NCBI GenBank assembly: GCA_965223905.1
Contig: CBDCXV010000002.1
Coordinates: 576,001 to 640,000, forward strand
Length of the DNA stretch: 64,000 bases
DNA from: Candidatus Latescibacterota bacterium
Lineage (GTDB): Bacteria > Latescibacterota > UBA2968 > UBA8231
Direction: 5' to 3'
Every line of letters begins with the position of its first letter. The first letter of the stretch is position 1. Under the pieces are notes generated by a model. That model ran no database searches. It was not told the DNA's origin and saw only the letters and a program-made list of their open reading frames with translations. Both the position numbers and the translations under genes were made by a program. Shown piece by piece: positions 9,673 through 62,206 of the stretch.

Positions 9673-11076
9673 ATGGAGAATAAAGCGAACGTCGTTTTCA
9701 TCCTGACGGACGACCAGGGACCCTGGGCCGCCGGTTGCTGCGGCAACGACGAGATACGTACCCCCTTCCTCGACCGGTTGGCCTCGGAGGGGACCCGCTT
9801 CAGCAACTTCTTCTGCACGAGCCCGGTCTGCTCCCCGGCGCGGGCGAGCCTGATGACCGGACGCATCCCCTCGGCGCACGGGGTGCACGACTGGATCCGC
9901 GAGGGCAACATGCCGCCGGATCCCGCTCGCTACCTCGAAGGACTGACCTGCTATACCGATGTCCTGGCCGGCAACGGCTACACCGTCGGGCTCAGCGGCA
10001 AGTGGCACCTCGGGGACAGCATGACGCCGCAGCACGGCTTCAGTCACTGGTTCGCATTGCCCACCGGCGGCAGCCAGTACAACGACGCGGACATGATCCG
10101 GGACGGACAGGTCGAAACGCAGCCCGGGTACCTCACGGACATGATCACAAACGACGCGCTGGAATTCATCTCCGCGAACCGGGAAGGGCCGTTCTGCCTC
10201 AGCGTCAATTACAACGCGCCGCATACCCCGTTCACGGGGCACCCCCGGGAGATCGTCGACTCCTACGACGACTGTCCGTTCAGGACCTGTCCACAGGAGG
10301 CATTGCACCCGTGGGCGGTGCAGGCGGCGGCCGTTCACATGGGCAACCGCGAGTCGTTGAAAGGGTATTTCGCGGCGATAACGGCGCTCGACTTCAACGT
10401 CGGGCGGATCCTCGAACGGCTGGCGCAGCTCGGTATTCGCGACAACACGCTCGTCGTCTTCAGCAGCGACAACGGCTACTCGTGCGGACATCACGGGTTC
10501 TGGCACAAGGGAAACGGCACCTTCCCGCTGAACATGTACGAGAACTCCGTGAAGGTCCCCTTCATCGTCAGCCAGCCCGGCAGGATCCCCGCCGGACGGG
10601 TGAGCGAGGCGATGGTGAGCCAGTACGACTTCATGCCGACCCTGCTCGACTACCTCGGGTTGCCCGATCCGAACGACGACATGTCCCCCGGCAGGAGCTT
10701 TCTCCCGGCGCTTTCCGGAGAGACGAACGACGCCAAGGAGGAGATCGTCGTCTTCGACGAGTACGGTCCCGTGCGCATGATCCGCACGCAGGAGTGGAAA
10801 TACGTCCACCGGTATCCGTACGGTCCGCACGAGCTCTACGACCTGGTGCACGACCCGGGGGAACGAAGAAACCTGGTGGACGACAAGTCCCGGAAGGCGC
10901 TGATATCCGACATGCGCCAACAGATGAGCGCTTGGTTCAACCGCTACGTCATGCCGGGACTGGATGGCGCGGGATTCCCGGTTACCGGCGGCGGGCAGGC
11001 AGCGAAGATCGGGGAGGGGCAATGCGGCGAAGGTGCGTTCTTTCCCAGGTACGATGCCCCGCGGCGGGATGTTTGA
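9673..11076 (+). CDS. Formylglycine-dependent sulfatase
   Basis: DDQG, CSPARASLMTG, GKWHLG, SDNG; RBS GGAGG. Confidence 0.95.
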   Translation: MENKANVVFILTDDQGPWAAGCCGNDEIRTPFLDRLASEGTRFSNFFCTSPVCSPARASLMTGRIPSAHGVHDWIREGNMPPDPARYLEGLTCYTDVLAGNGYTVGLSGKWHLGDSMTPQHGFSHWFALPTGGSQYNDADMIRDGQVETQPGYLTDMITNDALEFISANREGPFCLSVNYNAPHTPFTGHPREIVDSYDDCPFRTCPQEALHPWAVQAAAVHMGNRESLKGYFAAITALDFNVGRILERLAQLGIRDNTLVVFSSDNGYSCGHHGFWHKGNGTFPLNMYENSVKVPFIVSQPGRIPAGRVSEAMVSQYDFMPTLLDYLGLPDPNDDMSPGRSFLPALSGETNDAKEEIVVFDEYGPVRMIRTQEWKYVHRYPYGPHELYDLVHDPGERRNLVDDKSRKALISDMRQQMSAWFNRYVMPGLDGAGFPVTGGGQAAKIGEGQCGEGAFFPRYDAPRRDV

Positions 11077-13466: not shown

Positions 13467-13637
13467 GCGAACGGCGATTTCGGGCCCCGGCGCTCCCCCT
13501 CGACGAGGAACATCCCGCATGCGGACGATCTGCCGAGCCTCGTCCTCGGCGGCAACCTTGCCCGCATGTTGGAAACCGGCAGGCGGTGCCAGGTTCGACC
13601 CGGTAAACGGCGGAAATCAAAAAAACAGGAAAGCCTG

Positions 13638-15083
13638 ATGACGGCTGAACGCCCGAATATCGTGCTGATCATGTGCGATCAGATGCGCTGGGACGCGGCC
13701 GGGTTCGCCGGCAGCCCCACGGTCCGGACCCCCAACCTCGACCGGCTGGCCGCGAGCGGCGTCTGCTTCGAGAACGCCTACTGCGCCTCTCCGGTCTGTT
13801 CTCCCGCGCGGGCGAGTTGGTTGACCGGCCTCTATTCGCACGCCCACCTGCAGCTGCGGAACTACGGCCCCGGCAGGAAGGGGGAGTTCGGTGCCTCCCT
13901 GCCGGAGGACTGCATTACCATTGGCGATGTGCTCAAGGAGGCGGGATACCGCTGCGGCATCGTCGGACCGTGGCACCTGGGGGACGATCACCGCCCGCAG
14001 CACGGCTTCACCGACTTCTGGTGTACCTATCGCTACCTGGGCGAGCACCCGGATCCGCTGTTCGGCTATTTCGAACGGGAAGGGGTGCCCAACCTGTATC
14101 TCTCAGACGCGCCGGGTATGACTCTGTACGAGAACACCCTCGAGTTCGGCACCATCGAGGACCCCCGGCAGCAGCGCACGACCTGGACCGTCGACCGGTC
14201 TCTCGAGTTCATCGGGCAGAAAGGGGATGCCCCGTTCTTCCTGTTTGCGAGCGTAAAGGATCCGCATCCCCGAATCCTGGTACCGCCCGAGCTGCTGGTG
14301 AGCTACCCCGAAGAACGGATGCCGCTGTCCGCATCCCTGCGGGATCCGCTCGAGGGCAAGCCGGGCTTTCAGGCGCGGGGGAAGTTCCGCATTCACCCCT
14401 CGGTAACCGACGCGGAATTCCGCCGCATGACGGCCTTCTACTTCGCCCTCGTCACCCACATCGACACCCAGGTCGGGCGCCTCCTCCAAGCTCTCGAGGA
14501 ACGGGATCTTTTGAGCAATACAATCGTCACCTTCATAAGCGACCACGGTGAACTGCTGGGCGATCATGGCTACGTCGAGAAATGCCTGATGTATGAAGCG
14601 TCGGTTCGGGTTCCCTGCCTGATCTCATGGCCCCGGCAGTTGCCTGCCGGGTTCCGGGTTGCGGCGCCGCTGGCCGGGGTCGACCTGATGCCGACGTTGC
14701 TCGACCTCGCACATGAAACCCCGCCGGCCCCGGTCGACGGACGTTCCGTGGCCGAGGCCATCCTGAACCGGCGGGAGCCCGACCGCCAGCCCGTCTTCGC
14801 CGAGATCGCCAGCCTCGACGCGATTTACCACAACGCCCAAGACCCGGAGCAGCTCGCCGCCCACGCGATGGTCCGCGACGGCAACTGGAAGTATGTCCGC
14901 AACCGCTTCGATATCGACGAACTCTACGACCTCGACGCCGACCCGGGCGAGATGAACAACCTCGCCGGCGATGCCGATTGCGCTAACCGGATCGCTTCGA
15001 TGCGGGGGCAGATCGCCGGGATGATCCGCCGCACCGGGCCCGGCCCGTACGAATGGTGTTTACACGAAAGGGAGAAGGAGTGA
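13638..15083 (+). CDS. Sulfatase-family hydrolase
   Basis: PNIVLIMCDQ, CSPARAS, SDHG, ELYDL..DP.E; GKWH is replaced by GPWH. Confidence 0.93.
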   Translation: MTAERPNIVLIMCDQMRWDAAGFAGSPTVRTPNLDRLAASGVCFENAYCASPVCSPARASWLTGLYSHAHLQLRNYGPGRKGEFGASLPEDCITIGDVLKEAGYRCGIVGPWHLGDDHRPQHGFTDFWCTYRYLGEHPDPLFGYFEREGVPNLYLSDAPGMTLYENTLEFGTIEDPRQQRTTWTVDRSLEFIGQKGDAPFFLFASVKDPHPRILVPPELLVSYPEERMPLSASLRDPLEGKPGFQARGKFRIHPSVTDAEFRRMTAFYFALVTHIDTQVGRLLQALEERDLLSNTIVTFISDHGELLGDHGYVEKCLMYEASVRVPCLISWPRQLPAGFRVAAPLAGVDLMPTLLDLAHETPPAPVDGRSVAEAILNRREPDRQPVFAEIASLDAIYHNAQDPEQLAAHAMVRDGNWKYVRNRFDIDELYDLDADPGEMNNLAGDADCANRIASMRGQIAGMIRRTGPGPYEWCLHEREKE

Positions 15084-16324: not shown

Positions 16325-17959
16325 ATGGCCCGTTTGCTGCAGCCGGAAGGCATGAAGACGGAGAGCTACCAGTGCGGGATCGAGCCGGTGGACGGGAACC
16401 AGGCCTGGGAGCTCTTCTGCGCCAGCGGCGCCGGAGATCTGGAGCGGGTCCGCGCCTTGCTCGACAGCGACCCCCGGTTGGTCAACGCCCAGTACTGGTA
16501 CCAGTTTCCCATCCACATGGCGGTGCGCGAGAACCATGCCGAGGTGGTCGAGCTGCTGCTGCGGGCCGGGGCGGATCCGGGGCAGTCGCGCTATACCTAC
16601 AACTCGTGGGACAAGCTGCTGGCCATCGCCGAGGAGCGCGGCTACAGGGAGGTGCAGGCGCTGCTGGCGTCGGCGATGCGCGGGCGCTTCGGCTACGATC
16701 CGGGGTTTACAGCGATGGCCGAGGCGATCAAGGGCCGCGACCGCGCCCGGGTCGAAGCGGTGCTGGCCGGGCATCCAGGTTTCATTCGCGCCGCCGACGC
16801 GCTGGGCAACGGGCCGCTGCATTGGGCGGCGCTGACGCGGCAGAACGACCTGGTGGATCTCTTTGTCGCCCGGGGCACCGACCTGGAAGCCCGCCGCGCC
16901 GACGGCCAGACTCCGTTGCTGGTCTCGCTGAACGGCGACTACTGGTACCGGACGCGCAACCTGCCGGCTGAAGCGCCGCAAGACTCGTGGACGGTCACCC
17001 GCCACCTGCTCGCATGCGGCGCCGAGTACGCTCTCAGCATCGCCTGCGCTGCCGGCGACGAAGACCGCGTCGATGCGGTGCTGGCGGCCGATCCCGCCCA
17101 GGCCCGCGACCTCGATGACGGAAGGCGAAGTCCGCTCTCCTACGCCGCCCGCAACGGCCATACCCGGATCGTCGAAAAACTGCTTGACCTGGGGGCCGAT
17201 CCCAACCGGCCAGAGGAACTGGCGCCGCGCGGCGGGGCACTGTTCGGCGCTTCCGCGGGAAACCACCTGAAGACGGGGAAACTGCTGCTCGAACGCGGCG
17301 CCGATCCCAACGCCGGAGTGGACTCTTCCGGCACCTGCCTGACCATCGTCGAGTACAACCACGGAGAGAAGGGCGGTCCGATGCAGGCCCTGCTGCGCGA
17401 GCACGGAGCGGTGACGCCCCCCTATGCCATGGACGACGCGGCGCTGGAACGGGCCATGCGCGCAGGGGAGGAGGGGGTTTCGGACCCGCAACTGCTGCAC
17501 GAGGTGATGGGACGGGACAATCCCGCGCTCATCGGCCTCTTCCTCGACACCACGCCAAATGCGGGAGAGCTGTTCCAACTGACCGACATCTGGGGCGGCA
17601 ACTACCCGTCCGACCCCGGTACGATCCGCGCCCTGGCCGATCGCGGCGTCGACATGCGGCGCGCCAACTGGATCGGCCGCACCTTCCTGCACGGCTGCGC
17701 GGAAAAGGGGGACGTCGCCGCGGCCCGGGTCTTTCTGGAGCTGGGAGCCGATATCGAGGCGGTCGAGCTCGAATACGGGGGCACGCCCCTGGCCGCTGCC
17801 GCGCGCAAGGGGCAGGCGGAGATGGTGCGGTTTCTTTTGAACCAGGGCGCCGATCCGACGGCCCCGGCGCAGTCGCCCTGGGCGCAGCCGCTCCATTGGG
17901 CGGAGAAGGAGGGGCACGGGGAAGTGGCGGCGCTGCTCAGGGAGCGGCTGAGCGGGTAA
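16325..17959 (+). CDS. Ankyrin-repeat protein
   Basis: Many TPL/PLH..A...G repeats; no signal peptide. Confidence 0.9.
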   Translation: MARLLQPEGMKTESYQCGIEPVDGNQAWELFCASGAGDLERVRALLDSDPRLVNAQYWYQFPIHMAVRENHAEVVELLLRAGADPGQSRYTYNSWDKLLAIAEERGYREVQALLASAMRGRFGYDPGFTAMAEAIKGRDRARVEAVLAGHPGFIRAADALGNGPLHWAALTRQNDLVDLFVARGTDLEARRADGQTPLLVSLNGDYWYRTRNLPAEAPQDSWTVTRHLLACGAEYALSIACAAGDEDRVDAVLAADPAQARDLDDGRRSPLSYAARNGHTRIVEKLLDLGADPNRPEELAPRGGALFGASAGNHLKTGKLLLERGADPNAGVDSSGTCLTIVEYNHGEKGGPMQALLREHGAVTPPYAMDDAALERAMRAGEEGVSDPQLLHEVMGRDNPALIGLFLDTTPNAGELFQLTDIWGGNYPSDPGTIRALADRGVDMRRANWIGRTFLHGCAEKGDVAAARVFLELGADIEAVELEYGGTPLAAAARKGQAEMVRFLLNQGADPTAPAQSPWAQPLHWAEKEGHGEVAALLRERLSG

Positions 17960-25241: not shown

Positions 25242-25504
25242 TAAACTTTAATCCGTGAAGCGGGGAGCCTGATTTTTTTTGCTTGTCGAGGGGAAACTAG
25301 GGGTTACAAAATCGGCTAATGCACCCTGTCGACCTACCGGATTCACGGACTACGAGGACGAACCAGACGATTCCGGCCAGCCCCCCGGTGCAGCTACGGT
25401 TTCTGCCACTGCAAGCCGCTCCTGGGGATTCGTCAAGGATTTGTTTTTAAATCGCTAAGCAACACCCCTCCCGATCATACTTTCATGCGAAAGGAGCCGC
25501 AGCC

Positions 25505-26416
25505 ATGAACCGCCGCATTTTTGCGCTCGTCCTGCTGTTGACCTGGCCCGCTGGCGGCCACGAACTGAATAACACGGTCTATCCGGCGTTTCAGTGGCCG
25601 TGGGGTGCAGATGAAATTCTGGTCGACGGCGTCATCGACGATTTGGCCATTGTTCCTTTGTTCGAATTTGGCCATTGGATTTCGTCTACGGAGCTTCGAA
25701 ATGAAGAAGGGGAAGCCCCCGACCCCAATTCTCTGTATTCCGAAATTCTCGTCCTCTGGGACGACTACACCAACAGGATATATCTGCTGGAATTTCGGTA
25801 TGACGACCATGTGTATCAGTCCAGCGACCTAGATGGCGACATCTTCCTCCTCAAGGCAGGTTTGAACCCCGAGGGTAGCGCGACCCAAGCCCATTTCATG
25901 GGCGTGAGACCGGACTCGATTTATTTGGCTCCGCTTCGAAATACCTGGCACGACGAGCCTCCCTATGTAGAAAAGGCTTTCTCGTCCATCGACAAAATGT
26001 GGCCTGGTACATTCCCGGAAGCGACGGTGTACGAGGATTGGCTGTACATCGAATCGAGCTGGACCCTGTGGGAAGAATTGGTCTATGGGGAGTCTGGCGA
26101 AGTGCAATCGGCGGTGGAGTTCGACCTGGAAGAAGGCCAGATCATCGGTCTCGCATGGGAGTATTGGGATCTCGACCGCTCGAAAGGCCCGGGCCCCGAA
26201 GTCTGGTACAGCGTCGACCATAGGCCCGGATTGACTCGCTTCGAAAATTGGGCCCTGTCCGCTTTTCTGCTGGAACCCGAGACCCCTGGGTTCTATGGTT
26301 GGGTTTACGGATTCCAGGATCCACCTAGCCTACCCGAAGACGACGGATCCGAGGATGATTCCGCGGTTGTTGCCCGCAGCTGGGGATCCCTCAAGGACCT
26401 GTTTCGGAATCGTTGA
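25505..26416 (+). CDS. Secreted CBM9/DOMON-like protein with C-terminal WGxLK tail
   Basis: RBS AAGGAG; signal peptide; ILVDG..DD; DLEEGQIIGL; ends SAVVARSWGSLKDLFR. Confidence 0.75.
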   Translation: MNRRIFALVLLLTWPAGGHELNNTVYPAFQWPWGADEILVDGVIDDLAIVPLFEFGHWISSTELRNEEGEAPDPNSLYSEILVLWDDYTNRIYLLEFRYDDHVYQSSDLDGDIFLLKAGLNPEGSATQAHFMGVRPDSIYLAPLRNTWHDEPPYVEKAFSSIDKMWPGTFPEATVYEDWLYIESSWTLWEELVYGESGEVQSAVEFDLEEGQIIGLAWEYWDLDRSKGPGPEVWYSVDHRPGLTRFENWALSAFLLEPETPGFYGWVYGFQDPPSLPEDDGSEDDSAVVARSWGSLKDLFRNR

Positions 26417-31217: not shown

Positions 31218-31318
31218 CGTGGCCGGGGTCGACGACACGCTGGCCCCGACCCGGACGGCGGCGTAAACGGAAGCAAGTGGCAGTGGTGGCTACCCTACCC
31301 GGAGCAAGGGAGATGCAG

Positions 31319-33289: not shown

Positions 33290-35179
33290 ATGAAACATAG
33301 GATTGTTGTAGTTGCGTTACTTGCCTCATTTTTTATTGAGGATGCGTACGCGGATCCGGCCGGCGATTTGGCATTGGCCCGCAAGTTTTCCCCCATACTT
33401 ATCCTTACGAAAGAGACCAGCGGTGAATATGGAAATGTTCGCGTAACCAAACCGGAACCGGTGGAAATTGTGGGTGCGCACTCAGCCGATTCTTTACGGT
33501 TCAGAGTGTACGAACATTATCATCAACCGGATGAATTGCAAAGCCATCCAACCGACGCGACTGTTGTTGGATTTGATGGTTGGGTTCTCACTCTGACGTA
33601 TCCCAATGTTAAAGAATTTCCTACTGCTTCTGTCCCTGGTGAACGTCCAACCGATAGTGACATACAAAGTGCTGCGCCGGATGAAAATTTTACTAGAATC
33701 GATTTCCCAAATAACCAATTTGCTTTTCTAAGACTTTTCGAGTACATCGGTGCTCCCCGTGGTTTTGAAAACGGCTTTTACAAAGTAGCTCCTTACTTTG
33801 ATTATCCCGGTGTAAAACCAGAAGGCAAAAAGGTACCGAATCCTTTTTCGGATGGACCAGATTCCCTCATCACCCCCGGATGGAATGACACGTACTTTGG
33901 CAGCGGACCTCACGCAGGCGAGAACGAAAACTTCCCCAATACATCCTACGTGCATATATACAAGACAACCCACACAACCTATACTGACTCCATTACAGTA
34001 ATCCAATTTTTTTACTTTTACCCTTTCAATCACTGGTGGAACAGGCATGAGGGCGACTGGCAGCGAGTTCATGTTGTGGTGAATTCGAGGGATAGCACTA
34101 CTGCGGAGATCATAGGGGTGGAGTATTTGTTTCACAAGGCACATTTGTCTTATTATAATAACTTTAGCTCAAAACCTGACATAACAACCAATTATGTGTT
34201 TAATCCGCGGGAAGAGATCAAATTAAGTCAGGGTACACATCCTGTAATATACGTGGGGGCCGGATCACATGCCGCATACCCTACTGGCGGCGATTTTCTT
34301 GTCTATGAAAAAGCCTCTACAAATGAACGTTGGGAGAATATGACCCATACTGGTCTAATATTAAGCACTCAAGCCGATGATTTTCGTGATGACCTATGGG
34401 AGAGGTATGATTTGGTGTTACTTTCTGAACCGGATACGACTAACACAACTAACAATATGGATCTTCCTAAGAGTATGAGTTGGCTGGGAGCAGATGTCAG
34501 GTGGGGGACTCACCGTGTTGATTCGCCTGACTCCTATCCCGTTTCAACTCCGATTATTGGTTCATTGGCGAATTCACTTGTGGGTCAACAAGGTAATGAC
34601 AGCCCTCCCGGTCCGTACCATAAAGGTTGGAAAAAGCTCAAATTCTTCAGTCCATCTCAGACTGGTGGAGACGTTCTTGGATTCGAAGGTTTTCGCCGTA
34701 CCATTCGGCATAGTGACATACCCTACGAAGATTATCACCACTGGGCAATCCTCGGCCATGAGACTTGGGGTTATCGATATAATCCGAACCGGGACTCCCC
34801 CGGGTCACGCAGTCCTCTCCCCGAGACTTTTCGACTGTCTCGCGGGGACACTCTTTCCTTGACCGGGGACATCGTCATTTTTCCGAATGACACCCTCACC
34901 GTAGTGGAGGGCAGTCTGATCGAATTTGAACCGGTAACCGATCGCCACCAATTTTCTGTACATGGTGCCGATGATCGACGGGCCGAAATTTTCGTGTATG
35001 GCACCCTGATTGCTGAAGGGACTTTTACAGACTCAATTCGTTTTGCGTCCAGGGACACTGTCTTTTTCTGGGATCCTCCCGCTTGGACTGGAATACGTGT
35101 GATGGAGGGTGGTTCGGTTTCACTCAGCCATACAAGAATCAGCGATACGCAGCGCCCCCCCCCTGGCCTACTGGCCTGA
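33290..35179 (+). CDS. Secreted Vps62/NPP1-like head plus beta-helix-like module; 5' part of a gene split at a C9 tract
   Basis: Signal peptide; IQFFYFYPFNHWWNRHEGDWQ, HPVIYVGAGSHAAY, RWG, PPGP; visibly AT-richer than flanks. Confidence 0.75.
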   Translation: MKHRIVVVALLASFFIEDAYADPAGDLALARKFSPILILTKETSGEYGNVRVTKPEPVEIVGAHSADSLRFRVYEHYHQPDELQSHPTDATVVGFDGWVLTLTYPNVKEFPTASVPGERPTDSDIQSAAPDENFTRIDFPNNQFAFLRLFEYIGAPRGFENGFYKVAPYFDYPGVKPEGKKVPNPFSDGPDSLITPGWNDTYFGSGPHAGENENFPNTSYVHIYKTTHTTYTDSITVIQFFYFYPFNHWWNRHEGDWQRVHVVVNSRDSTTAEIIGVEYLFHKAHLSYYNNFSSKPDITTNYVFNPREEIKLSQGTHPVIYVGAGSHAAYPTGGDFLVYEKASTNERWENMTHTGLILSTQADDFRDDLWERYDLVLLSEPDTTNTTNNMDLPKSMSWLGADVRWGTHRVDSPDSYPVSTPIIGSLANSLVGQQGNDSPPGPYHKGWKKLKFFSPSQTGGDVLGFEGFRRTIRHSDIPYEDYHHWAILGHETWGYRYNPNRDSPGSRSPLPETFRLSRGDTLSLTGDIVIFPNDTLTVVEGSLIEFEPVTDRHQFSVHGADDRRAEIFVYGTLIAEGTFTDSIRFASRDTVFFWDPPAWTGIRVMEGGSVSLSHTRISDTQRPPPGLLA

Positions 35180-38100
35180 CGGTACAACCGGGCAACAACG
35201 CAGCGACGCTGAGTTGGACCAAGTCGGTTGACCCCTCCATCACGCACTGGGAGTACCAGACGAAACAGGGGCTCGCGGATTGGGGAGAATGGCTCAGGAT
35301 CGACCCGAGTGATTGGTCGACGACCTCGTACACCGCCGAGAACCTACTCCGGGGAGTGACCTACCAGTTCAAAGTGCAGGCGGTCAATTTGAGCGGCACC
35401 GCCGCATCCGAGGCCGTGGAGGTGACGCTGCCGGCCGGACCGCCGGACCCGCCCGAGTTGACGGTGATTCCGGGTCACGAGATGGTGACCCTGAGCTGGA
35501 CCCCCGGATCCGATAACGGCTCGGCTATCGAGCGGCACGAGTTGCGCTACAGCGCCGACGGGGGCAATACGTGGAACCCGGATTGGACCGCTGAACCGCC
35601 GCGCGAGCAGATCATCCGGAACCTGCTCAACGAAACCGCGTACACCTTCCAGATGCGGGCCAAGAACGCAGTGGGCTACAGCACGGTGGCGGAGGTCACG
35701 GTCACGCCGCAGCATCCGATCCTGGGGCCTACCGCCCTCTCGTCCGCCGAGAACTCTGAGGACCGGTTGGCGACCTACCGATTCAGCGCCCCTTCGGACC
35801 TGGACCTGTCCGAGGTCCTCTACGGCTTGGGGCTGTCCGATATCGACGACAGCGGGGTCTTCGAGCTTGATAATCAGGGCGGGTTGAGCTTCCAGGACGC
35901 GCCGGACTTTGAGGCGCCGGCCACTGCCGATCGGGGCAACCTCTACGCCGTATGGCTGCGTGCGGCTCCAAGTTCTGAGGGTGGGGGGGAAGGAGTGCGA
36001 GTGGAGCCGCCTCCCACCTTTCTAAAACGGGTGGAAGTGACGGTGACCAACGTGGACGAGCCGGGCCGTGTGGAGCTGTCGTCGACCGAGCCCAAGGTGG
36101 GGGACAGGCTGACGGCGGAGCTCACCGACCCGGACAAGGGCGTGGAGGATGTGGATTGGCGGTGGCAGGCCTTGCCCCCGGGCACTCGCAGTACGCACCC
36201 GCCGGGGCCGGGAGCCTCGACGGCTTCTTCCCTGCTGGTCACGAGTGAGCATATCGGGCTGACCCTGTCGGCGCAGGTGACCTACGTAGACGGGGAAAGC
36301 GAAGACGCGAACGACCGCAAGAGCGCGCAGAGCGCGGCGACGGCGCCGGTGGTGGATGTTCCCTCGGCGCCTCGGAACCTGGAGGCGGCTGCGGGGAACG
36401 CCCGGGTGGATCTGAGGTGGGATCCGCCGCTCACCGACAACGGCTCGGCGCTGACGGGGTATGTGGTTCGGCACAGCGCCGACGGGGGCGCGAACTGGAT
36501 GTCGGAGACGCTGGCGGTGACGCGCCACACGGTGCGCGACCTGACCAACGGCACGGAGTACAGCTTCGAGGTGCGCGCCGTCAACGGGGCGGGCGAGGGG
36601 GCCTCCGCGAGCGACACGGCGACGCCGGCGAGGCCGGACACGCCGGGCCGGGTGGAGTGGAGCACGACTCAGCCGCGGGTGGGTCAGGAGCTGACGCCGA
36701 CGCTCATCGACCCGGACAACCCGGCGCTGGCAGAGGCGCGCTGGCGCTGGCGCCGGCAGAGGTGGTCTCGGTCCGATGACGGCGATTCGCTGGCGGCGCC
36801 GGTCCCCGGGTCGCGCTCCGGTGAATCGAAAATAGGAGTGATCGCCCGCACGCGTCAGTATACGCCCCAGGTGAGCGATCTCCATCAGTGGTTGTGGGTT
36901 GAAGTCACTTATACCGACGACTATACCGACGATTCCGGCCGGCACCGAGTAAGCGCGACGACGTCGAGGGCGGTGGGACCGGGCCCCCCGTGCGCCCCCG
37001 CCAACCTGAAGGCGGCGCCCGGCGACGGGCAGGTGACGCTGACCTGGGAGGCGGGCTGCGTCAACGGGCAGACTATCGACAGGTATCAATACCGTCGTCT
37101 GGAGGCGCGGAAATGGGTGCGGGTGCCCGGGGACGGCTCGGCCCGTCGTCAGCAGGTGGAGGGCCTGACCAACGGGGAGGCGCACACGTTCGAGGTGCGG
37201 GCGAGGAACGGTCAAGGGTGGGGTCCTGCCGCCCAGGCCACGGCCACGCCCGCGGCGGCGGAGTCCCCTCCTCCTCCACCTCCCCCGCCGCCGCTGACGG
37301 TCACCTACGGAGCGTCGTCCTACTCGGCGCAGGAAGGGGGCGAGGCGGCGACGGTGACGGTGCGGCTGTCGCCGTCGGCGTCGGAGGCGCTGAGCATCCC
37401 GATCACGGTCAATCCCCCGTCGGGCGACTTCACGGTGGCCGGGCTGACGGACGGAGCGCTGTCGTTCGCACCGGAGGCGGACGAAGCGACGTTCACGATC
37501 ACGGCGGATCAGGATGACGACACGGTCGACGAGACGGTGCTTCTGGGGTTCGGGGATCTGCCGGAGGAGGTGAGCGCGGGCACGCCGGCCAGCGCCACGG
37601 TGACCCTGTTTGACGACGACGTGGTCACGCCCGTGGTGAGCTTGTCGACGACGACGCCGCAGGTGGGTCAGCGGATGACGGCCACCCTGGTGGACGTCGA
37701 CGGGAGCGTGGCGGACACTAGCTGGCAGTGGCAGCGGCGGGCCGACGCGGGTTCGGGGTGGGTGCCTATCGAACGGTCGGCGCGCTACCCCATTGCGGCC
37801 ACGTCCCGCTACACGCCGGTGGCCGCCGATGCCGGCAAGCAACTGCGGGCCACGGTGAGCTACACCGACGCCCACGGCCCGGGCAGCGCCCAGAGCGCGG
37901 CCACCGACGCGGTGACGTGGCCGCCGCTGACGGTCACCTACGGCGATTCGACGTATTCGGCGAGTGAAGGGGGCGCCGCGGCGACGCTGACGGTGCGGCT
38001 GTCGGCAGAGGCGGAACAGTTGGTGAAGATCCCGATCACGAGAGACCCTGCGTCGGGGGACTACACGGTGACGTGGCCGGGGGTGGAAGACACGCTGTCG

Positions 38101-41010
38101 TTTTCGGGCAGCACGACCTCGCAGTCGTTTACGGTCACGGCGACCGAGGACGACGACGAGGACGACGAGACGGTGCTTGTGGGATTCGGGGCTCTGCCGG
38201 AGAGGGTCGAGGCGGGCACGCCGGCGAGCGCGACGGTAACCCTGGTCGACGACACGGACCACCCCGGCACGGTGAGACTGTCGACGTCGTCGCCGGAGGT
38301 GGGTCAGCGGATGACGGCCACCCTGACGGACGTCGACGGCGGCCTGGAGGCGGTGGCCTGGCAGTGGCAGCGGCGGGCCGACGCGGGTTCGGCGTGGGTG
38401 CCTATCGAGCGGTCGCCGCGCTACCCCATTGTGGACCTGTCCCGCTACACGCCGGTGGCCGCCGACCGGGGCAAGCAGCTGCGGGCCACGGTCGGCTACA
38501 CCGACGGGCACGGTCCGGACAAGAGCGCGCAGAGCGCGGCGACGTCGGCGGTGAGGCCGGCCGACACCCCCGGCACGGTGCGCTTGTCGACGGCGTCGCC
38601 GCAGGTGGATCGGGAGCTGACGGCCACCCTGGTGGACGAGGACGGGTACCTGAGGGATATATCGTGGCGGTGGGAGCGCCGGTCCGGGCCCGGGTCGGCG
38701 TGGAGGGACATCGAGCGGCCGGACGACCGCTTTCCCCATGCGGATTTGTCGCGCTACACGCCGTCGTCGTCCGAAGCAGGGCAGCAGCTGCGGGCGACGG
38801 TCTCCTACACGGACGGGCACGGCCCGGGCAAGAGCGCTCAAAGCGGCGAGACCGATCCGGTGCAGAGGCCGGACCGTCAGGGCACGGTGCGCTTGTCGAC
38901 GGCGTCGCCGCAGGTGGGTCGGGAGCTGACGGCCACCCTGGTGGACGTCGACGGCGGTCTGGAGGCGGTGGCCTGGCAGTGGCAGCGGCGGGCGGACGCG
39001 AGTTCGGGGTGGGTGCCTATCGAGCGGTCGGCGCGCAACCCCATTGCGGCCACGTCCCATTACACGCCGGTGACGGCGGATGTGGGGCAGCAGTTGCGGG
39101 CCACGGTCGGCTACACGGACGCCCACGGTCCGGACAAGGCGGCGGCCAGCGGCGAGACCGATCCGGTGCAGAGGCCGGACCGTCAGGGCACGGTGCGCTT
39201 GTCGACGGCGTCGCCGCAGGTGGATCGGGAGCTGACGGCCACCCTGGTGGACGAGGACGGGTACCTGAGGGATATATCGTGGCGGTGGGAGCGCCGGTCC
39301 GGGCCCGGGTCGGCGTGGAGGGACATCGAGCGGCCGGACGACCGCTTTCCCCATGCGGATTTGTCGCGCTACACGCCGTCGTCGTCCGAAGCAGGGCAGC
39401 AGCTGCGGGCGACGGTCTCCTACACGGACGGGCACGGCCCGGGCAAGAGCGCTCAAAGCGGCGAGACCGATCCGGTGCAGAGGCCGGACCGTCAGGGCAC
39501 GGTGCGCTTGTCGACGGCGTCGCCGCAGGTGGGTCGGGAGCTGACGGCCACCCTGGTGGACGTCGACGGCGGTCTGGAGGCGGTGGCCTGGCAGTGGCAG
39601 CGGCGGGCGGACGCGAGTTCGGGGTGGGTGCCTATCGAGCGGTCGGCGCGCAACCCCATTGCGGCCACGTCCCATTACACGCCGGTGACGGCGGACAGGG
39701 GGCAGCAGTTGCGGGCCACGGTCGGCTACACGGACGCCCACGGGCCGGACAAGGCGGCGGCCAGCGGCGAGACCGCCCCGGTGGTCACCGTGCCGTCGGT
39801 GCCGAGGGATTTCACCGCAGAAGCCGGCAACAGGCAGGTGGTGCTGTCGTGGCGGGCGCCGGTCTCCGACGGCGGCCTGTCCCTGACGGGCTACGAGTAC
39901 CGGCGCCGGGCCGGCAGCGGCTCCTGGTCGGGCTGGACCGGGGTGGGCACGAATACGACCCGGACGGTGACCGGGCTGAGCAACGGCACTCGCTACCGCT
40001 TCGAGGTGCGGGCGCGCAACGCGGCCGGGGCGGGTGCGGCGGCCAGCGCCTCGGCGACCCCGGTCCAGCCCAACCGGGCCCCGTATTTCACCAGTGGCCC
40101 CACCAGCGTCTCCTTCGCCGAGAACGGCAGCGGCCCGGTGGGCCGGTACACGGCCAGGGACCCGGACGGCGACGCCATCACCTGGTCGAGGACGGGTACG
40201 GAGGCGAGCGCTTTCCAGCTGGAGGGGACCGGCACGACGCGCACCCTCACCTTCGACACGGCGCCCGACTACGAGGCCGGGAGGTCCTACCAGGTGACCG
40301 TCGAGGTCAGCGACGGGTCGCTGCAGGCGGAGCGAACGGTGAGGGTGACGGTGACCGACGAGCCCGAGCCGCCGGAGCCGCCCTCCGGGGTGAGGGTGAG
40401 CGCGCCGGACAACATGGGCCATGAGCGCCTGGAGGTGAGCTGGACGGCCCCGGACAACCGCGGCCGGCCGGCGCTCAGCGGCAACGACGTGCACTACTGC
40501 AAGACCAACGAGGTCTTCTTTTGCGACAGCTACAACATCTGGTCCTCGCTGACGGTCGGCGGCTCGGCCACCGGCACCCTGCTGACCGGACTGTCCTCCC
40601 ACACCGGATACACGGTGCGGGTGCGGGCCCGCAACGCCGAAGGCACCAGCGGCTGGTCGGCGCGGGCCACCGGCCGCACCCGCTCGGCCGCGGCCAAGGC
40701 CCTGGCCGGGCAGCTGGCAAGGACCGGGATGAAAGGACTGGCCGCCCTGGCCGCGCCCAACCCCTTCAATTCCAGTACGACCCTCTATTTCCAGCTGACC
40801 GAAACCGGGGAGGCCTCCCTGGTCATCTACAGCCTCGCCGGGCAGGTGGTGAAGACCCTGATACCCAACCGCACCCTGAAAGCCGGGATACACCAGGTGG
40901 ACTGGGAGGGCCGCGACGAGCAGGGCCGCCCCGTGGCCGCCGGCGTCTACCTCTACCGACTCGCCGCAGGGGACAAGGCCCTGGTGCGAAAAATGACCCT
41001 GCTGCGATAA
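35155..41010 (+). CDS. Fn3/cadherin-like/Ig/Calx-beta repeat stalk with C-terminal FlgD-Ig; 3' part of the split gene
   Basis: No signal peptide or credible start of its own; Fn3 begins right after the C9 tract; ends APNPFN...WEGRDEQGRPVAAGVY..KMTLLR. Confidence 0.85.
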   Translation, partial: PPPWPTGLTVQPGNNAATLSWTKSVDPSITHWEYQTKQGLADWGEWLRIDPSDWSTTSYTAENLLRGVTYQFKVQAVNLSGTAASEAVEVTLPAGPPDPPELTVIPGHEMVTLSWTPGSDNGSAIERHELRYSADGGNTWNPDWTAEPPREQIIRNLLNETAYTFQMRAKNAVGYSTVAEVTVTPQHPILGPTALSSAENSEDRLATYRFSAPSDLDLSEVLYGLGLSDIDDSGVFELDNQGGLSFQDAPDFEAPATADRGNLYAVWLRAAPSSEGGGEGVRVEPPPTFLKRVEVTVTNVDEPGRVELSSTEPKVGDRLTAELTDPDKGVEDVDWRWQALPPGTRSTHPPGPGASTASSLLVTSEHIGLTLSAQVTYVDGESEDANDRKSAQSAATAPVVDVPSAPRNLEAAAGNARVDLRWDPPLTDNGSALTGYVVRHSADGGANWMSETLAVTRHTVRDLTNGTEYSFEVRAVNGAGEGASASDTATPARPDTPGRVEWSTTQPRVGQELTPTLIDPDNPALAEARWRWRRQRWSRSDDGDSLAAPVPGSRSGESKIGVIARTRQYTPQVSDLHQWLWVEVTYTDDYTDDSGRHRVSATTSRAVGPGPPCAPANLKAAPGDGQVTLTWEAGCVNGQTIDRYQYRRLEARKWVRVPGDGSARRQQVEGLTNGEAHTFEVRARNGQGWGPAAQATATPAAAESPPPPPPPPPLTVTYGASSYSAQEGGEAATVTVRLSPSASEALSIPITVNPPSGDFTVAGLTDGALSFAPEADEATFTITADQDDDTVDETVLLGFGDLPEEVSAGTPASATVTLFDDDVVTPVVSLSTTTPQVGQRMTATLVDVDGSVADTSWQWQRRADAGSGWVPIERSARYPIAATSRYTPVAADAGKQLRATVSYTDAHGPGSAQSAATDAVTWPPLTVTYGDSTYSASEGGAAATLTVRLSAEAEQLVKIPITRDPASGDYTVTWPGVEDTLSFSGSTTSQSFTVTATEDDDEDDETVLVGFGALPERVEAGTPASATVTLVDDTDHPGTVRLSTSSPEVGQRMTATLTDVDGGLEAVAWQWQRRADAGSAWVPIERSPRYPIVDLSRYTPVAADRGKQLRATVGYTDGHGPDKSAQSAATSAVRPADTPGTVRLSTASPQVDRELTATLVDEDGYLRDISWRWERRSGPGSAWRDIERPDDRFPHADLSRYTPSSSEAGQQLRATVSYTDGHGPGKSAQSGETDPVQRPDRQGTVRLSTASPQVGRELTATLVDVDGGLEAVAWQWQRRADASSGWVPIERSARNPIAATSHYTPVTADVGQQLRATVGYTDAHGPDKAAASGETDPVQRPDRQGTVRLSTASPQVDRELTATLVDEDGYLRDISWRWERRSGPGSAWRDIERPDDRFPHADLSRYTPSSSEAGQQLRATVSYTDGHGPGKSAQSGETDPVQRPDRQGTVRLSTASPQVGRELTATLVDVDGGLEAVAWQWQRRADASSGWVPIERSARNPIAATSHYTPVTADRGQQLRATVGYTDAHGPDKAAASGETAPVVTVPSVPRDFTAEAGNRQVVLSWRAPVSDGGLSLTGYEYRRRAGSGSWSGWTGVGTNTTRTVTGLSNGTRYRFEVRARNAAGAGAAASASATPVQPNRAPYFTSGPTSVSFAENGSGPVGRYTARDPDGDAITWSRTGTEASAFQLEGTGTTRTLTFDTAPDYEAGRSYQVTVEVSDGSLQAERTVRVTVTDEPEPPEPPSGVRVSAPDNMGHERLEVSWTAPDNRGRPALSGNDVHYCKTNEVFFCDSYNIWSSLTVGGSATGTLLTGLSSHTGYTVRVRARNAEGTSGWSARATGRTRSAAAKALAGQLARTGMKGLAALAAPNPFNSSTTLYFQLTETGEASLVIYSLAGQVVKTLIPNRTLKAGIHQVDWEGRDEQGRPVAAGVYLYRLAAGDKALVRKMTLLR
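38572..39775 (+). repeat. Intragenic tandem duplication with 615-bp period (two Ig-like modules per unit)
   Basis: 38572-39160 is nearly identical to 39187-39775. Confidence 0.95.
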
Positions 41011-48572: not shown

Positions 48573-48980
48573 TCAGCGGGCGGGCCAAAGCTCGAGTGGC
48601 GTCCACTTCGCCATGTGGTTGAAGTCGAGGTCGGTCGCCAGCATGACCAGTTTATAGCGAATACAGATCTGGGCGAGAAGCGCGTCGATGGTTCCGATCT
48701 GAATGCCGTGCCGGCGGCACTTGTTGCGCAAGGCTGCTGCGTCAATGTAGTCGTCACGGGCGGGGGAAATCATGGCGAGCGCCTCGAACCGTTCGATGAT
48801 CCCCGCCCTGGCTCGCGGTCCTGAAAAGCCCTGCAACAACTCCTGCAAGACGATCCCGGTCGTGTAAACCGGTTCGCCGCTGCCGAGCCCCTCCCGCAGG
48901 CGCTGCACCTCTGCCCCTTCCGGTGCCGTATCCCGTCTCAAGGCCAGCGACCAGACGCTCGTGTCCACAAACAACGTCAC
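48573..48980 (-). CDS. vapC: VapC PIN-domain toxin
   Basis: VDTSVW, ELLQG, IDALLA, TD.DF. Confidence 0.92.
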   Translation of the reverse strand: MTLFVDTSVWSLALRRDTAPEGAEVQRLREGLGSGEPVYTTGIVLQELLQGFSGPRARAGIIERFEALAMISPARDDYIDAAALRNKCRRHGIQIGTIDALLAQICIRYKLVMLATDLDFNHMAKWTPLELWPAR

Positions 48981-49177
48981 CCACGGCTCCGTTCGCGTTT
49001 GTAGTCGAAGCCCTCGTCCCAGTCGAGTTTTCCAAAAAGATCCAGGAGCCGTTCCTGCTCCCGGCGTGCGATGAACTCCCGCAAGGCGCGGTTGACAGTC
49101 GCCTTCTTCGTCTTCTCGCCGCCGATCTCCAACGCCTTTTCGAGCAGCATTGGGTCTATCGCCAGGTTTGTCGCCAT
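48977..49177 (-). CDS. vapB: VapB-type antitoxin
   Basis: MATNLAID..LL..A...TKKATVN.AL.EFI; GTGA overlap with vapC. Confidence 0.9.
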   Translation of the reverse strand: MATNLAIDPMLLEKALEIGGEKTKKATVNRALREFIARREQERLLDLFGKLDWDEGFDYKRERSRG

Positions 49178-49402
49178 TGTGTTACCTCCGACACATGGAA
49201 TAACACATAACTAACCCCCGGCCGGTGACGCGGACAAGGGCATGCGGCAGCCGGGCCCGAGCTGCTGGCCGGTTCGGGCTCGGGTTTGCCGCAACCAGGC
49301 CAGGCCGATCCCGGCCCGAGGAGACTGGCTTACCCGAAGGATGTCGGTCAGGTGATGGTATAGGATGGAGTACGTCCTATTTTTTGTTTCCAGGAGAAAG
49401 CC

Positions 49403-56024: not shown

Positions 56025-58232
56025 ATGAAACTGTCGGGGATAGGCACCTTGAAGAAGCTACCAAAGTGGTGGGTTGGGTCCTTGGCAGCAGTTCTCGGCC
56101 TTGCTCTGGCATCGGTCTCTTTCGCCCATCAGCCCGAAGGGGTCGTGTACCCGGTTTTTCAATGGCCTGAAGGGCAGGAGCCAGTTATCGATGGCGACCT
56201 ATGGGAATGGGATATGATCCCGGACGAGTACCGCATCTCGTCCTCCATTTGTCGAAGTTTCAACGGAGACTCCCCGGAGGCTTACGGGCTGGAATCCGAG
56301 ATCATCGTCAGTTGGAGCGAGTCCCAGAACAAGATCTACATCCTGGAAGTCCGGCAGGACGATGATTTCATCCTCGGGGACCCGGACACCTATGGCGACG
56401 CCATCGACATACAACTGGACGGCGATCACGGGGGCGAACTCATTTACTTCAGTCAAGATGAATACCCGGATGATGAAGAGCGAAGTCTCAACAAGGGCCG
56501 CCGGGCGCAATCCTACGTTCAGTTTCTTCCGGGCAGCACTCGGGGTCCGGAGGATACTTGGGCCTGGTTCTGGGTCAGCGAGTCTACCTGGTATGACCAG
56601 CCGGAATACATGGACATGGCCTATGTATTCGAAGGCCAACTGAGGGGGGAGGGCCTGCTGGTGACCGAGTCCAGTTGGACCTTGTGGGACGATTTTATCT
56701 GGAACGACCCGGACGCCTCCGTCCAAACCGATCTCGAAGAGGGCCACATCATCGGCCTGGGATGGATATACCATGATTTTAATGATGAGGGTGATAGGTC
56801 CGTGTTTTATTGCAGCGGGCCCGAGGCAGAGGATCAGTATAGAACTTCGGCCTCGATTTCGGACTTTCTTCTGGAACCGGCCTACCATTGGCCTGACTAC
56901 TCCATCCTCCTCCCCGACCCACCCCCCTGTCCTTGCCAGGAGGTGGACGACGATTCGGTTGTCATATGGGAATCTTGGAGGCGCTTCAAGGGGCCTTCAG
57001 ATGGAGTCAATTTCCTGTCGTTTTCACCGGATGGGCGCACCCTGGCCAGTAGCAGTTGGGACCGAACAGTTCGGCTTTGGGATGTCGACACGGGTACACC
57101 CCAGGCCACCCTGGAAGGCCATGGGGGTACGGTCTTAGAGGTGGCGTTTTCGCCGGATGGGGGCACCCTTGCCAGTGGGAGTATGGACGGCACGATTCGG
57201 CTGTGGAATGTGAGAACGGGCCAACTCGACACCAGCCTTTCAATTGATCCTGGGAGGGGTGTCTGGTCCGTGGCGTTTTCGCCGGATGGCGAAACGCTGG
57301 CCAGTGGAGGTAACGATGGCGAGGTTCATCTGTGGGATGTGGGAACGGGCCAACAAGTGACCAGCATTGGACATTCCATTTATTGCGGTTCCCTGGCGTT
57401 TTCGCCGGATGGCGAATCGCTGGCCTGTGGGGTATCATTCGGCGGGCTTAACCTTTTTGAAGTTGGGCCGGGGACACTGGGGTGGCCAAGCGCCTCGAAA
57501 GTGACTATTTCGCCGGATGGCGGTGCACCGAAGAGGACGGAGTTGCCGCCACAACCCTCCGGGGTCGGTACCGTTGCCTTTACTCCGGATGGCAGCAAGT
57601 TGGCCTGGGGGCTGCCCTTTGGCGGGACGACTCGGTTGTGGGATCTGGACAGGGACCAGGAGAGCACTCTTCGGGACAGGGGTTATGTGGCCTTCTCGCC
57701 GGATGGCCAAACCCTGGCGATTGCTGATGACTGGAACTCGGACACGATAATTCGCTTGTGGGATGCGGAAACCGGTCAACACAAGGCCACCCTGAAGGGG
57801 CCCCTGAATGATAGGACCCATTCGATAGCGTTTTCACCGGACGGGACTCTAGCCAGTGCGGGTAAAGGTGGCATCCTTTTGTGGGACATGTCGCCATTCA
57901 TAACGGATCATTCTGAAATAACGGTTGTATCTGCCGTGGGACCCGCGGTGCCTGTCGTCAGCGGCCTGGATGCGATTGCGCCCAATCCCTTCAACACCAC
58001 CACTCGGATTTCCTACCGCATGGCCACCCCCGGCCAGGTGCGTCTGGAGATCTACAATACCCTCGGCCAGCGGGTGCGCACGCTGGTAGACGAAGCCCGA
58101 CCCGCCGGCTCCTACCAGGTTCTCTGGGACGCCCGCGACCAGGAGGGCGCCGTAGTTTCGGCCGGGGTTTACCTCGCTCGCCTTCACTATCGCGACGGTG
58201 CGGAGACGCGGCGGCTGCTCTACCTCAAGTAG
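56025..58232 (+). CDS. Secreted CBM9/DOMON-like + WD40 + FlgD-Ig protein
   Basis: RBS AAGGAGG; N-domain paralogous to 25505; FSPDG repeats; PNPFN tail. Confidence 0.9.
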   Translation: MKLSGIGTLKKLPKWWVGSLAAVLGLALASVSFAHQPEGVVYPVFQWPEGQEPVIDGDLWEWDMIPDEYRISSSICRSFNGDSPEAYGLESEIIVSWSESQNKIYILEVRQDDDFILGDPDTYGDAIDIQLDGDHGGELIYFSQDEYPDDEERSLNKGRRAQSYVQFLPGSTRGPEDTWAWFWVSESTWYDQPEYMDMAYVFEGQLRGEGLLVTESSWTLWDDFIWNDPDASVQTDLEEGHIIGLGWIYHDFNDEGDRSVFYCSGPEAEDQYRTSASISDFLLEPAYHWPDYSILLPDPPPCPCQEVDDDSVVIWESWRRFKGPSDGVNFLSFSPDGRTLASSSWDRTVRLWDVDTGTPQATLEGHGGTVLEVAFSPDGGTLASGSMDGTIRLWNVRTGQLDTSLSIDPGRGVWSVAFSPDGETLASGGNDGEVHLWDVGTGQQVTSIGHSIYCGSLAFSPDGESLACGVSFGGLNLFEVGPGTLGWPSASKVTISPDGGAPKRTELPPQPSGVGTVAFTPDGSKLAWGLPFGGTTRLWDLDRDQESTLRDRGYVAFSPDGQTLAIADDWNSDTIIRLWDAETGQHKATLKGPLNDRTHSIAFSPDGTLASAGKGGILLWDMSPFITDHSEITVVSAVGPAVPVVSGLDAIAPNPFNTTTRISYRMATPGQVRLEIYNTLGQRVRTLVDEARPAGSYQVLWDARDQEGAVVSAGVYLARLHYRDGAETRRLLYLK

Positions 58233-61567: not shown

Positions 61568-62206
61568 ATGCGCCGGATCCTGTCATCACTCGTGTTCCTC
61601 TGCCTTCTCGTCCTACCCCTCTCCGCCCAGGAGGAAGCCCTCCACGGCACCTGGGAGGGGAGCTTCGTGGACGAGGAAGGCAACGCGATCACCATGCGCC
61701 TGTCCTTTGAGGAGGATGGCGCCTTCGAGCTCAACCAGGTCGTCGAGCTGGGAGAAGACTTCCAGTCCGTTGTCGGAGCCACGGAAATACCCGTGGAGGA
61801 GATCACCGCCCAGGGCATCGGCACCTACGAGGTCGACGGCGACAAGCTCTCCGTCGATATCACCGAGGTGGAAATGCTCGTCGGCGACCGGGACTTCTTC
61901 GAGGTCCTCGCCGAGGTCGCCCGCGCCCTGGCCCGTTTTGCCGCGGACTTTGCCGGAGTCTCCGAAGAGGACTACCCGGCCTTCGAGCAGAACTTCGTCG
62001 ACGAGTTCCTCGCCGGAATGGACGAGGACGAGTTCCTTGCCGGATTCGAGGAGGAGGTCACCTACGCCATCGAGGGTGACACCCTGTTCATCACGTCTCC
62101 CACGGAGGACGGGGGAGAAGAAACCTCGGAATACCAGCGCGTCGACGTCGGCACTGCCGTGGCCGGGACGACCTGGGGCGGTCTGAAAGCGAATTGGCGT
62201 CCGTGA
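61568..62206 (+). CDS. Acidic secreted protein with C-terminal WGxLK tail
   Basis: RBS AGGAGG; signal peptide; LHGTW; ends TAVAGTTWGGLKANWRP. Confidence 0.8.
   Translation: MRRILSSLVFLCLLVLPLSAQEEALHGTWEGSFVDEEGNAITMRLSFEEDGAFELNQVVELGEDFQSVVGATEIPVEEITAQGIGTYEVDGDKLSVDITEVEMLVGDRDFFEVLAEVARALARFAADFAGVSEEDYPAFEQNFVDEFLAGMDEDEFLAGFEEEVTYAIEGDTLFITSPTEDGGEETSEYQRVDVGTAVAGTTWGGLKANWRP

Follow-up and report, generated by a model that had tools for sequence, protein, structure and literature searches.

C-terminal signals on exported proteins have repeatedly led to new envelope machinery, among it sortases, exosortases, rhombosortase, myxosortases and the T9SS (type IX secretion system). Tripartite sorting signals (LPXTG/sortase, PEP-CTERM/exosortase, GlyGly-CTERM/rhombosortase and MYXO-CTERM/myxosortase) are described by a list of eight attributes in one account (10.1101/2023.06.07.544157). 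The T9SS type A domain (TIGR04183, Por_Secre_tail; FlgD_ig-like) is likewise a C-terminal tag of Sec-exported proteins, used by bacteria of the superphylum Fibrobacteres–Chlorobi–Bacteroidetes (FCB), and forms a folded beta-sandwich of ~70–100 residues. Here we describe a shorter peptide, the W-G tail, found in a 64,000-nucleotide stretch of the genome of an uncultured, sponge-associated Candidatus Latescibacterota bacterium (GenBank assembly GCA_965223905.1, contig CBDCXV010000002.1, positions 576,001 to 640,000; hereafter the window). The tail is about 17–22 residues long, and its unit, of about 16–20 residues, reads [ST]-[AST]-V-x4-W-G-x-[ILV]-K plus a short end, usually of 3–9 residues and often basic. 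We show that the tail is modular, conserved, C-terminally placed and absent from the libraries searched, and we tentatively favour, at somewhat less than even odds, the reading that it is an autonomous envelope-docking or anchoring peptide.

The W-G tail shares attributes 1, 2, 3, 6 and 7 of the eight given for tripartite signals (10.1101/2023.06.07.544157), multiplicity within a genome being seen in part: it is C-terminal, several copies lie in short stretches of one genome, it has three invariant signature residues (W, G and K), its carriers have signal-peptide-like N-termini, and many pairs of carriers are otherwise unrelated. Unlike those signals, it has no hydrophobic transmembrane segment, its Lys being followed by 3–23 mostly polar or basic residues (5 in most homologues), it lacks a regular Arg cluster, and tandem and internal copies of its unit exist in other lineages. 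A terminal cluster of two to five basic residues, as in tripartite signals, is seen inconsistently: the ends of many tails contain R or K (..WRP, ..RNR, ..FRRLMPNP), but that of P1 is acidic and some other tails are without such a cluster. None of the NCBIfam sorting models matches the tail, and we know of no cognate intramembrane protease. We rejected a tripartite, sortase-type signal for want of a transmembrane helix.

Both the T9SS type A domain and the W-G tail are present in the window, but never on the same protein. The initial annotation, made from the letters of the window and a list of its open reading frames (ORFs), had described the two as non-overlapping, and this holds: the motif is absent from all four FlgD-tailed proteins, and FlgD domains are absent from the W-G tail proteins. 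FlgD_ig matched all four FlgD-tailed proteins, and the three that were scanned with TIGR04183 all passed its cut-off of 23 bits (24.8–35.1 bits). Where the T9SS tag is a folded domain on proteins of 521–1975 residues, the W-G tail is a short peptide, predicted to be unfolded, on window carriers of 212–303 residues. A T9SS C-terminal domain was rejected as an identity for the tail, as 0 of 4 tail sequences matched TIGR04183 even at E up to 10. Since the bodies of the FlgD-tailed proteins consist of WD40, fn3 and Calx-beta repeats, the genome appears to send eukaryote-like repeat proteins by a T9SS-type route.

Of the InterPro member databases, our searches covered Pfam and NCBIfam, in which neither the tails nor their tandem forms matched any model even at E up to 10. 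A profile search of PDB sequences gave chance-level matches only (best E 0.25), so the claim that the tail is distinct from described sorting domains stands for these three resources. Motif-string and topic searches of 8.1 million open-access papers and 0.36 million preprints returned no description of the tail, and among the matches listed by the topic searches none dealt with sorting signals in these phyla. The unit, its transmembrane-helix-free architecture and its tandem forms therefore appear to be undescribed, while a short C-terminal address on exported proteins is in itself already known.

Three proteins of the window, P1, P2 and P3 (Table 1), had been reported to end alike. We confirmed all three ORFs and their tails, with the addition that P1, whose strand had been omitted, lies on the minus strand. 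A six-frame scan with WG.[ILVM]K returned four matches in the window, the fourth being a copy missed by the initial annotation in a P2-like 3' remnant, and all four lie 5–9 residues before a stop codon, the range given earlier for the three named tails. The spacing between [ST]-[ATV]-V and W, given earlier as three to four residues, is four in each of the three named tails if P1 is read T-V-V. The P1 tail is atypical, with 9 residues after K and a net acidic charge. First-order Markov shuffles of the window (n = 200) contained on average 0.645 matches, with 0.155 near a stop, and in none of the 200 did four or more matches fall near a stop. As for the bodies, P3 matches Lipocalin_4 in Pfam (23.3 bits against a cut-off of 22.4), whereas P1 and P2 have no Pfam or NCBIfam match. 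The start of P1 is backed by a near-identical database protein (P0121), and a P2 homologue of 70% identity (P0130) retains the tail. All three N-termini are hydrophobic and signal-peptide-like, and their earlier description as signal-peptide proteins holds to the extent that reading by eye and a crude hydrophobicity rule allow.

A scan with the P3 alignment, taking one genome per species, yielded 53 related loci (979,095 bp). Nearly all are titled as metagenome-assembled genomes (MAGs) of Candidatus Latescibacterota, some being labelled Gemmatimonadetes or Gemmatimonadota, and these titles bear out the link to Latescibacteria that had been mentioned for such tails. Across the window and these loci (1.04 Mb, six frames), 71 of 73 motif matches lay no more than 15 residues before a stop and had 50 or more open codons upstream, compared with a pooled 8.6% when the same five positions were permuted (119 decoys); 60 of the 73 matches are P3 homologues, for which the loci were fetched. 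The distance from motif to stop was 0–3 residues in 3 matches, 4–12 in 64, 13–30 in 5 and more than 30 in 1, the last sitting in a 9-codon frame that we regard as noise, and the core stood 3–23 residues from the C-terminus in the other 72. Counting within such stretches only, there are four tail copies in the 64-kb window and five in two loci (L012 and L050) of one chromosome. The crude signal-peptide rule was passed by 64 of 72 tail ORFs but by only 11 of 104 conserved non-tail clusters, and three of the eight failing tail ORFs are truncated remnants. By this crude rule, the tail appears to be associated with a hydrophobic N-terminus.

The carriers, in contrast to their tails, are diverse. 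The 72 tail ORFs comprise 60 P3 homologues, seven singletons and one family of five members, whose body is of the sCache_2/dCache_2 type, as judged from a scan of its database counterpart P0122. Two of the singletons, one in the window and one in locus L001, are gene remnants next to transposase genes. Comparison of the P1, P2 and P3 bodies gave best BLASTP E values of 1.2, 2.2 and 0.13, only short, non-significant chance segments aligning outside the tails. When motif units were masked, 26 carriers fell into 14 BLASTP groups, of which at least 8 are full-length families. These comparisons support the view that the tail is a separable C-terminal module on unrelated proteins with signal-peptide-like N-termini.

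A word-index search with the tail profile, in which the 8000 candidates sharing most words were scored, returned 12 proteins, all 12 with a C-terminal unit. Ten are counterparts of sequences used to build the profile, and the new carriers are P0131 (308 residues, with a signal peptide) and the fragment P0128, which has a weak polysaccharide-lyase match (24.6 bits against a cut-off of 27). The same kind of search with the last 44 residues of P2 gave no candidate. Leave-one-family-out hidden Markov models (HMMs) of the tail scored the omitted tails at only 2–15 bits, so that a blind HMMER census of single-copy tails was not possible. On a 7.7-kb contig from a MAG titled Gemmatimonas phototrophica, we also observed a P3 relative of 30% identity (L051, 5058–5825) that ends in the tail SAVEALSWGQLKAASR; either the tail reaches Gemmatimonadota or this contig is misbinned.

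Selection on the tail was examined in P3 homologues. At E ≤ 1e-3 there are 265, and the tail figures are taken from the best 120 of them. W-G-x-[LV]-K is kept in 115 of these 120, at exactly 5 residues from the end in 112, 6 in 2 and 7 in 1; the five without the core comprise three with divergent, frame-shifted-looking ends, one sequence that is cut off and one W-to-L substitution. An alignment of 40 P3 homologues (49–92% identity), for whose retrieval the motif played no part, has just 20 invariant columns, W203, G204 and K207 among them, while V198, T201, L206 and A208 are nearly invariant. The [ILV] before K and the [ST] before W are nearly fixed, and the tail is retained down to 30–48% body identity. 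By these alignments, the tail is conserved far above the bodies of its carriers. The underlying codons vary (Gly: GGC 42, GGT 17, GGA 11, GGG 2; Lys: AAA 59, AAG 13), Leu being written with four codons and Ser with both the AGY and TCN classes. This synonymous variation, and the use of both Ser classes in particular, indicates selection on the peptide rather than on a nucleotide element.

These results leave next to no room for the reading that the tail is no functional element, but a product of chance, of recent paralogy or of DNA-level conservation where genes end. In favour of this reading, the motif is short and a blind profile fails to find it, with leave-one-out scores of 2–15 bits. However, the number of copies near stops in the window was never reached by shuffling, decoy permutations behave differently, the carrier bodies are unrelated, the tail persists in distant P3 homologues, and the synonymous variation excludes an element at the DNA level. 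We consider this reading refuted, within the limits of sequence analysis.

The conservation of K207 bears on another reading, in which a dedicated enzyme cross-links the invariant Lys to peptidoglycan, a glycolipid or some other polymer of the envelope, much as in Braun's lipoprotein. Replacement of this Lys by Arg is never seen in the 115 motif-bearing P3 homologues, which were found by whole-protein similarity, and it is invariant in the alignment of 40. The adjoining W and G are equally fixed, as in an enzyme recognition site, and the multi-unit, outer-membrane-type lipoproteins described below could serve as envelope staples. Yet the Lys is not the terminal residue, we found no candidate enzyme, and the motif has no precedent in the libraries searched; moreover, outside the whole-protein homologue set, its invariance is imposed by the regular expression or profile used. 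Overall, we regard covalent attachment as quite improbable.

To place the tail relative to the fold of its carrier, we predicted the structure of P3 with AlphaFold2 (AF2) from a 40-row alignment. The model (mean predicted local distance difference test [pLDDT] 79.4) shows a barrel that ends at residue 191, after whose last strand residues 196–202 form a linker with pLDDT <50, and the prediction supports a tail lying outside the fold. The nearest folds to the barrel are the periplasmic domains of ToxS/VtrC and Bacteroides lipocalin-like proteins (Foldseek, best E 2e-06, target-normalised TM-score 0.63). Another carrier family gave weak, sub-threshold SnoaL/DUF4440-like matches. Because their bodies are lipocalin-like, sCache or, below threshold, SnoaL/DUF4440-like, the carriers identified so far look like small extracytoplasmic ligand-binding folds. 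In other organisms, a lipid anchor or a transmembrane helix usually tethers such small ligand-binding folds to a membrane.

A short C-terminal peptide of Trp, aliphatic and basic residues linked to a soluble domain recalls the membrane-binding helices of MinD, FtsA and PBP5, and the tail might likewise be a membrane-binding amphipathic helix. Its interfacial Trp, its basic residues (net charge averaging +1.75 in 32 units), the aromatic residue found at +7 in many units and the avidity that tandem copies would bring fit this reading, as does a short helix that AF2 draws at P3 residues 203–209. That helix has a pLDDT of only ~49, however, and the helical hydrophobic moment from W to +8 (100 degrees) is no higher than in shuffles (z = 0.38), with 0 of 32 units standing out. 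Membrane-targeting helices, moreover, usually conserve character rather than exact residues, whereas W, G and K are invariant here, the location is extracytoplasmic, and the P1 tail is acidic. An amphipathic helix was not supported on account of its moment, and we hold it to be highly unlikely.

In contrast, the beta-type moment over the same residues (170–180 degrees) gave z ~4.8, a value that none of 1000 shuffles reached, which we treat as descriptive rather than inferential because the units were chosen by the motif itself. This alternation, the [ST]-x-V-type stretch and the short, extended character of the peptide are reminiscent of the TonB box, and a single envelope partner could read such a tail on many unrelated proteins; the TonB box, unlike the W-G tail, is N-terminal and belongs to outer-membrane transporters. 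An extended strand is also the usual form in which PDZ domains bind peptides, and a beta-type pattern in a short, exposed, unstructured C-terminal peptide on exported proteins would suit a proteolysis or quality-control tag, read by a periplasmic C-terminal processing or PDZ-type protease or by a chaperone and setting half-life or maturation. But conservation in the tail is lowest at its very end (RP, RR, LR, GE, NR, LE), the part that such proteases read, internal and N-terminal copies exist, and it would be unusual for a degradation tag to be kept by so many unrelated families and across more than one lineage. We consider this reading very unlikely.

Beyond Latescibacterota, 1.84 billion representative proteins were searched with a profile and no index, which favours multi-copy proteins because scores add over copies; six matches reached E ≤ 1e-3 (P0133–P0138). 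All six have a unit no more than 7 residues from the end and further copies elsewhere. P0133 carries four tandem units and P0134 five, with a period of ~20 residues, P0135 and P0136 show a domain-unit-domain-unit layout, P0137 bears one unit at its end and another immediately behind the signal peptide, and P0138 is a fragment with two units. Lipoprotein-type signals begin P0133, P0134 and P0136. The wider unit consensus is [PST]-A-[VT]-E-x-[ST]-[ST]-W-G-x-[IL]-K-x-L-[YF]. The nearest ESM Atlas clusters to P0137 (scores 0.88–0.90) are mostly from Candidatus Eiseniibacteriota and Krumholzibacteriota, and we treat the presence of the unit in these phyla as a lead only; a search of the same atlas with the repeat region of P0133 gave no usable match.

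In their unit of ~20 residues, their conserved aromatic, Gly and basic residues and the C-terminal tandem arrays of P0133 and P0134, these proteins resemble choline-binding repeats, an analogy that suggests non-covalent, avidity-based anchoring. Unlike choline-binding repeats, the W-G unit is as a rule single in Latescibacterota and occurs in diderm-type phyla, and no Pfam repeat family covers the units of P0133–P0138 at E up to 10.

The layout of these proteins also bears on an export signal, in which the tail would be read by an outer-membrane translocon, either T9SS, with the tail as a minimal signal, or one as yet undescribed, so that small Sec-exported proteins cross the outer membrane, with the tail perhaps removed later. 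In Latescibacterota the tail is strictly C-terminal and single, its carriers have hydrophobic, signal-peptide-like N-termini, and every multi-copy protein still ends with a unit. The same genome uses T9SS type A domains, tail genes in the window and in L050 adjoin genes for giant surface proteins (T9SS-tailed or not) and outer-membrane-protein-like genes, and the sub-threshold resemblance of P0128 is to polysaccharide lyases, an enzyme class that is often extracellular. Against this, the tail has no likeness to TIGR04183 or any T9SS model, the comparable known outer-membrane export tags are folded domains of ~70–100 residues, tandem arrays and internal copies are not known as a property of secretion signals on Sec-dependent cargo, and the unit is also found on lipoproteins. 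The neighbourhood is weak evidence, as there are four T9SS-tailed genes in 64 kb. We judge an export signal to be unlikely.

Since tandem arrays and internal copies occur on lipoproteins elsewhere, we favour a peptide that docks or anchors its carrier over an export signal that is cleaved off, and the strict conservation of W, G and K argues for specific recognition. The docking reading draws together the modularity of the tail, the conservation of three residues, a position outside the fold, the tandem and internal copies and the lipoproteins, together with the beta-type pattern and a cargo of small ligand-binding folds that elsewhere are tethered to membranes. In this model, the carrier would cross the inner membrane via Sec and have its signal peptide removed, as its N-terminus suggests. 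Its folded cargo domain would be joined by a flexible linker to an unstructured tail, as predicted for P3 only, and one shared envelope partner, either a protein receptor or an envelope polymer, would bind this tail, probably in an extended beta-type conformation. Small ligand-binding proteins that are otherwise soluble would in this way be kept at a particular envelope site or passed on to it, and tandem units, such as those on lipoproteins of other lineages, would raise avidity. We infer the binding of the tail, its partner and its final location.

Several observations weigh against a docking or anchoring peptide. No binding partner, translocon or peptidase was found, and among the 53 loci a search for a conserved neighbour of tail genes returned only ordinary synteny, in one paralogue group, with no partner candidate. 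The unit of Latescibacterota, always single and 3–23 residues from the end, is equally expected of a C-terminal export signal, and the strict Lys invariance could point to chemistry such as a covalent link. AF2 draws residues 203–209 of P3 as a low-confidence helix, the beta periodicity is only descriptive, and the model of the tandem-array protein P0133 (4-row alignment, mean pLDDT 35.5) was unusable. Finally, the profile search favoured multi-copy proteins, and single-copy proteins of other lineages lie below its significance reach given leave-one-out scores of 2–15 bits. The initial annotation had proposed a second, minimal export or anchoring tag. This is partly supported: a separable, conserved module distinct from FlgD/T9SS is upheld, and export or anchoring would be putative roles, for which the searches gave no partner translocon or peptidase. 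Against a classical sorting signal, the lack of a transmembrane helix and the tandem and internal copies fit a docking peptide better than a cleaved export tag.

A broader proposal, which we think possible but doubtful, is that the unit serves as the address in an undescribed pathway of sorting to, or attachment in, the envelope that is common to FCB candidate phyla (Latescibacterota and, as a lead only, Eiseniibacteriota and Krumholzibacteriota). Such a pathway would be free of transmembrane helices and independent of T9SS domains, and a dedicated receptor or enzyme would read the Trp-Gly pair and use the Lys, possibly for a covalent link. The W-G tail bears most of the bioinformatic hallmarks of a sorting signal apart from the transmembrane part, and the phyla it is found in, with abundant sponge symbionts among them, lack a cultured model organism for work on the envelope. 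Should there be a partner, the tail offers an easy handle for finding it. For annotation, the tail marks anonymous small ligand-binding proteins (lipocalin-like, sCache and SnoaL-like) as one functional envelope cohort.

Table 1. W-G tail carriers and other features of the 64,000-nucleotide window.
Feature	Coordinates	Strand	Remarks
P3	61568..62206	+	212-residue exported lipocalin-like protein with W-G tail
P3 putative Sec signal peptide	61568..61627	+	MRRILSSLVFLCLLVLPLSA; approximate boundary; read by eye, kept in homologues
P3 tail and stop	62153..62206	+	TAVAGTTWGGLKANWRP; core WGGLK at 62174–62188
P2	25505..26416	+	303-residue exported protein, no recognised family, W-G tail
P2 tail and stop	26360..26416	+	SAVVARSWGSLKDLFRNR; core at 26381–26395; acidic, Pro-rich linker upstream
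P2-like 3' remnant	25279..25458	+	59-residue ORF ending SATASRSWGFVKDLFLNR; core at 25423–25437
P1	2690..3463	-	257-residue exported protein, no recognised family, W-G tail
P1 tail and stop	2690..2758	-	STVVEPRLWGSIKSDQANGELE; core at 2720–2734
WD40 protein with T9SS type A C-terminal domain	3615..5297	-	TIGR04183 35.1 bits against cut-off 23; no WG.[ILVM]K
FlgD_ig / T9SS type A C-terminal domain protein	11175..12740	-	FlgD_ig 1.6e-08; TIGR04183 24.8 bits
fn3/Calx-beta protein with FlgD_ig C-terminal domain	35083..41010	+	1975 residues; domain scan
WD40 protein with T9SS type A C-terminal domain	56025..58232	+	TIGR04183 28.9 bits
Sulfatases	9673..11076 and 13566..15083		domain scan
Ankyrin-repeat protein	16325..17959		544 residues; domain scan
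PIN-domain protein	48573..49181		domain scan

The P2-like remnant (Table 1) has a tail closely like that of P2 and lies ~1.1 kb downstream of an ISL3-family transposase gene, and on both grounds we take it to be a truncated paralogue. The transposase gene (22915–24177; DDE_Tnp_ISL3, 1.2e-71) is followed, within 22915–24526, by a 112-residue ORF, the start of which looks by eye like a response-regulator receiver fragment, and then by the tail remnant. In locus L001, a second tail remnant (18662–18994) lies beside a transposase-like ORF on the minus strand (17412–18737). Since both remnants adjoin transposase genes, two of the tail genes seen are disrupted by insertion sequences. An acidic stretch ending D-S-A (..EDDSAV..) precedes some tails, namely those of P2 (window 26339–26365), P0131 and P0138, and we take it to resemble the general O-glycosylation sequon of Bacteroidota. 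An O-glycosylation-type D-[ST]-A sequon before tails was dropped as a general feature, as most P3 homologues have no D-[ST]-A.

In one paralogue group of the P3 family (L005 7834–9981 and ~21 other loci), two conserved genes on the same strand always lie upstream, the nearer of which starts with a twin-arginine (Tat-like) motif.

Sulfatases and ankyrin-repeat proteins typify the genomes of sponge symbionts. In what it encodes (sulfatases together with ankyrin, WD40 and fn3 proteins), the window fits the sponge-associated Latescibacterota described in PMC12993501. Three paralogues on the plus strand (19348–20751, 31214–32392 and 32479–33249; BLASTP 1e-10 to 1e-32) share the ending ..SA[VA][AS][TI]L[HR]F, with a terminal aromatic residue as in outer-membrane beta-barrels, and match nothing in Pfam or NCBIfam. 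Two come directly after a giant protein of 1590 residues (26445–31217, plus strand) that has an M6-metalloprotease-like domain (TIGR03296, 1.4e-14, below cut-off), fn3 repeats and no T9SS end, and these paralogues may be dedicated outer-membrane partners of giant surface proteins. The 3' end of the giant gene overlaps the stop-to-stop frame of the next gene (30953–32392) by ~260 bp, which may reflect a frameshift, an error in the sequence or genuine overlap.

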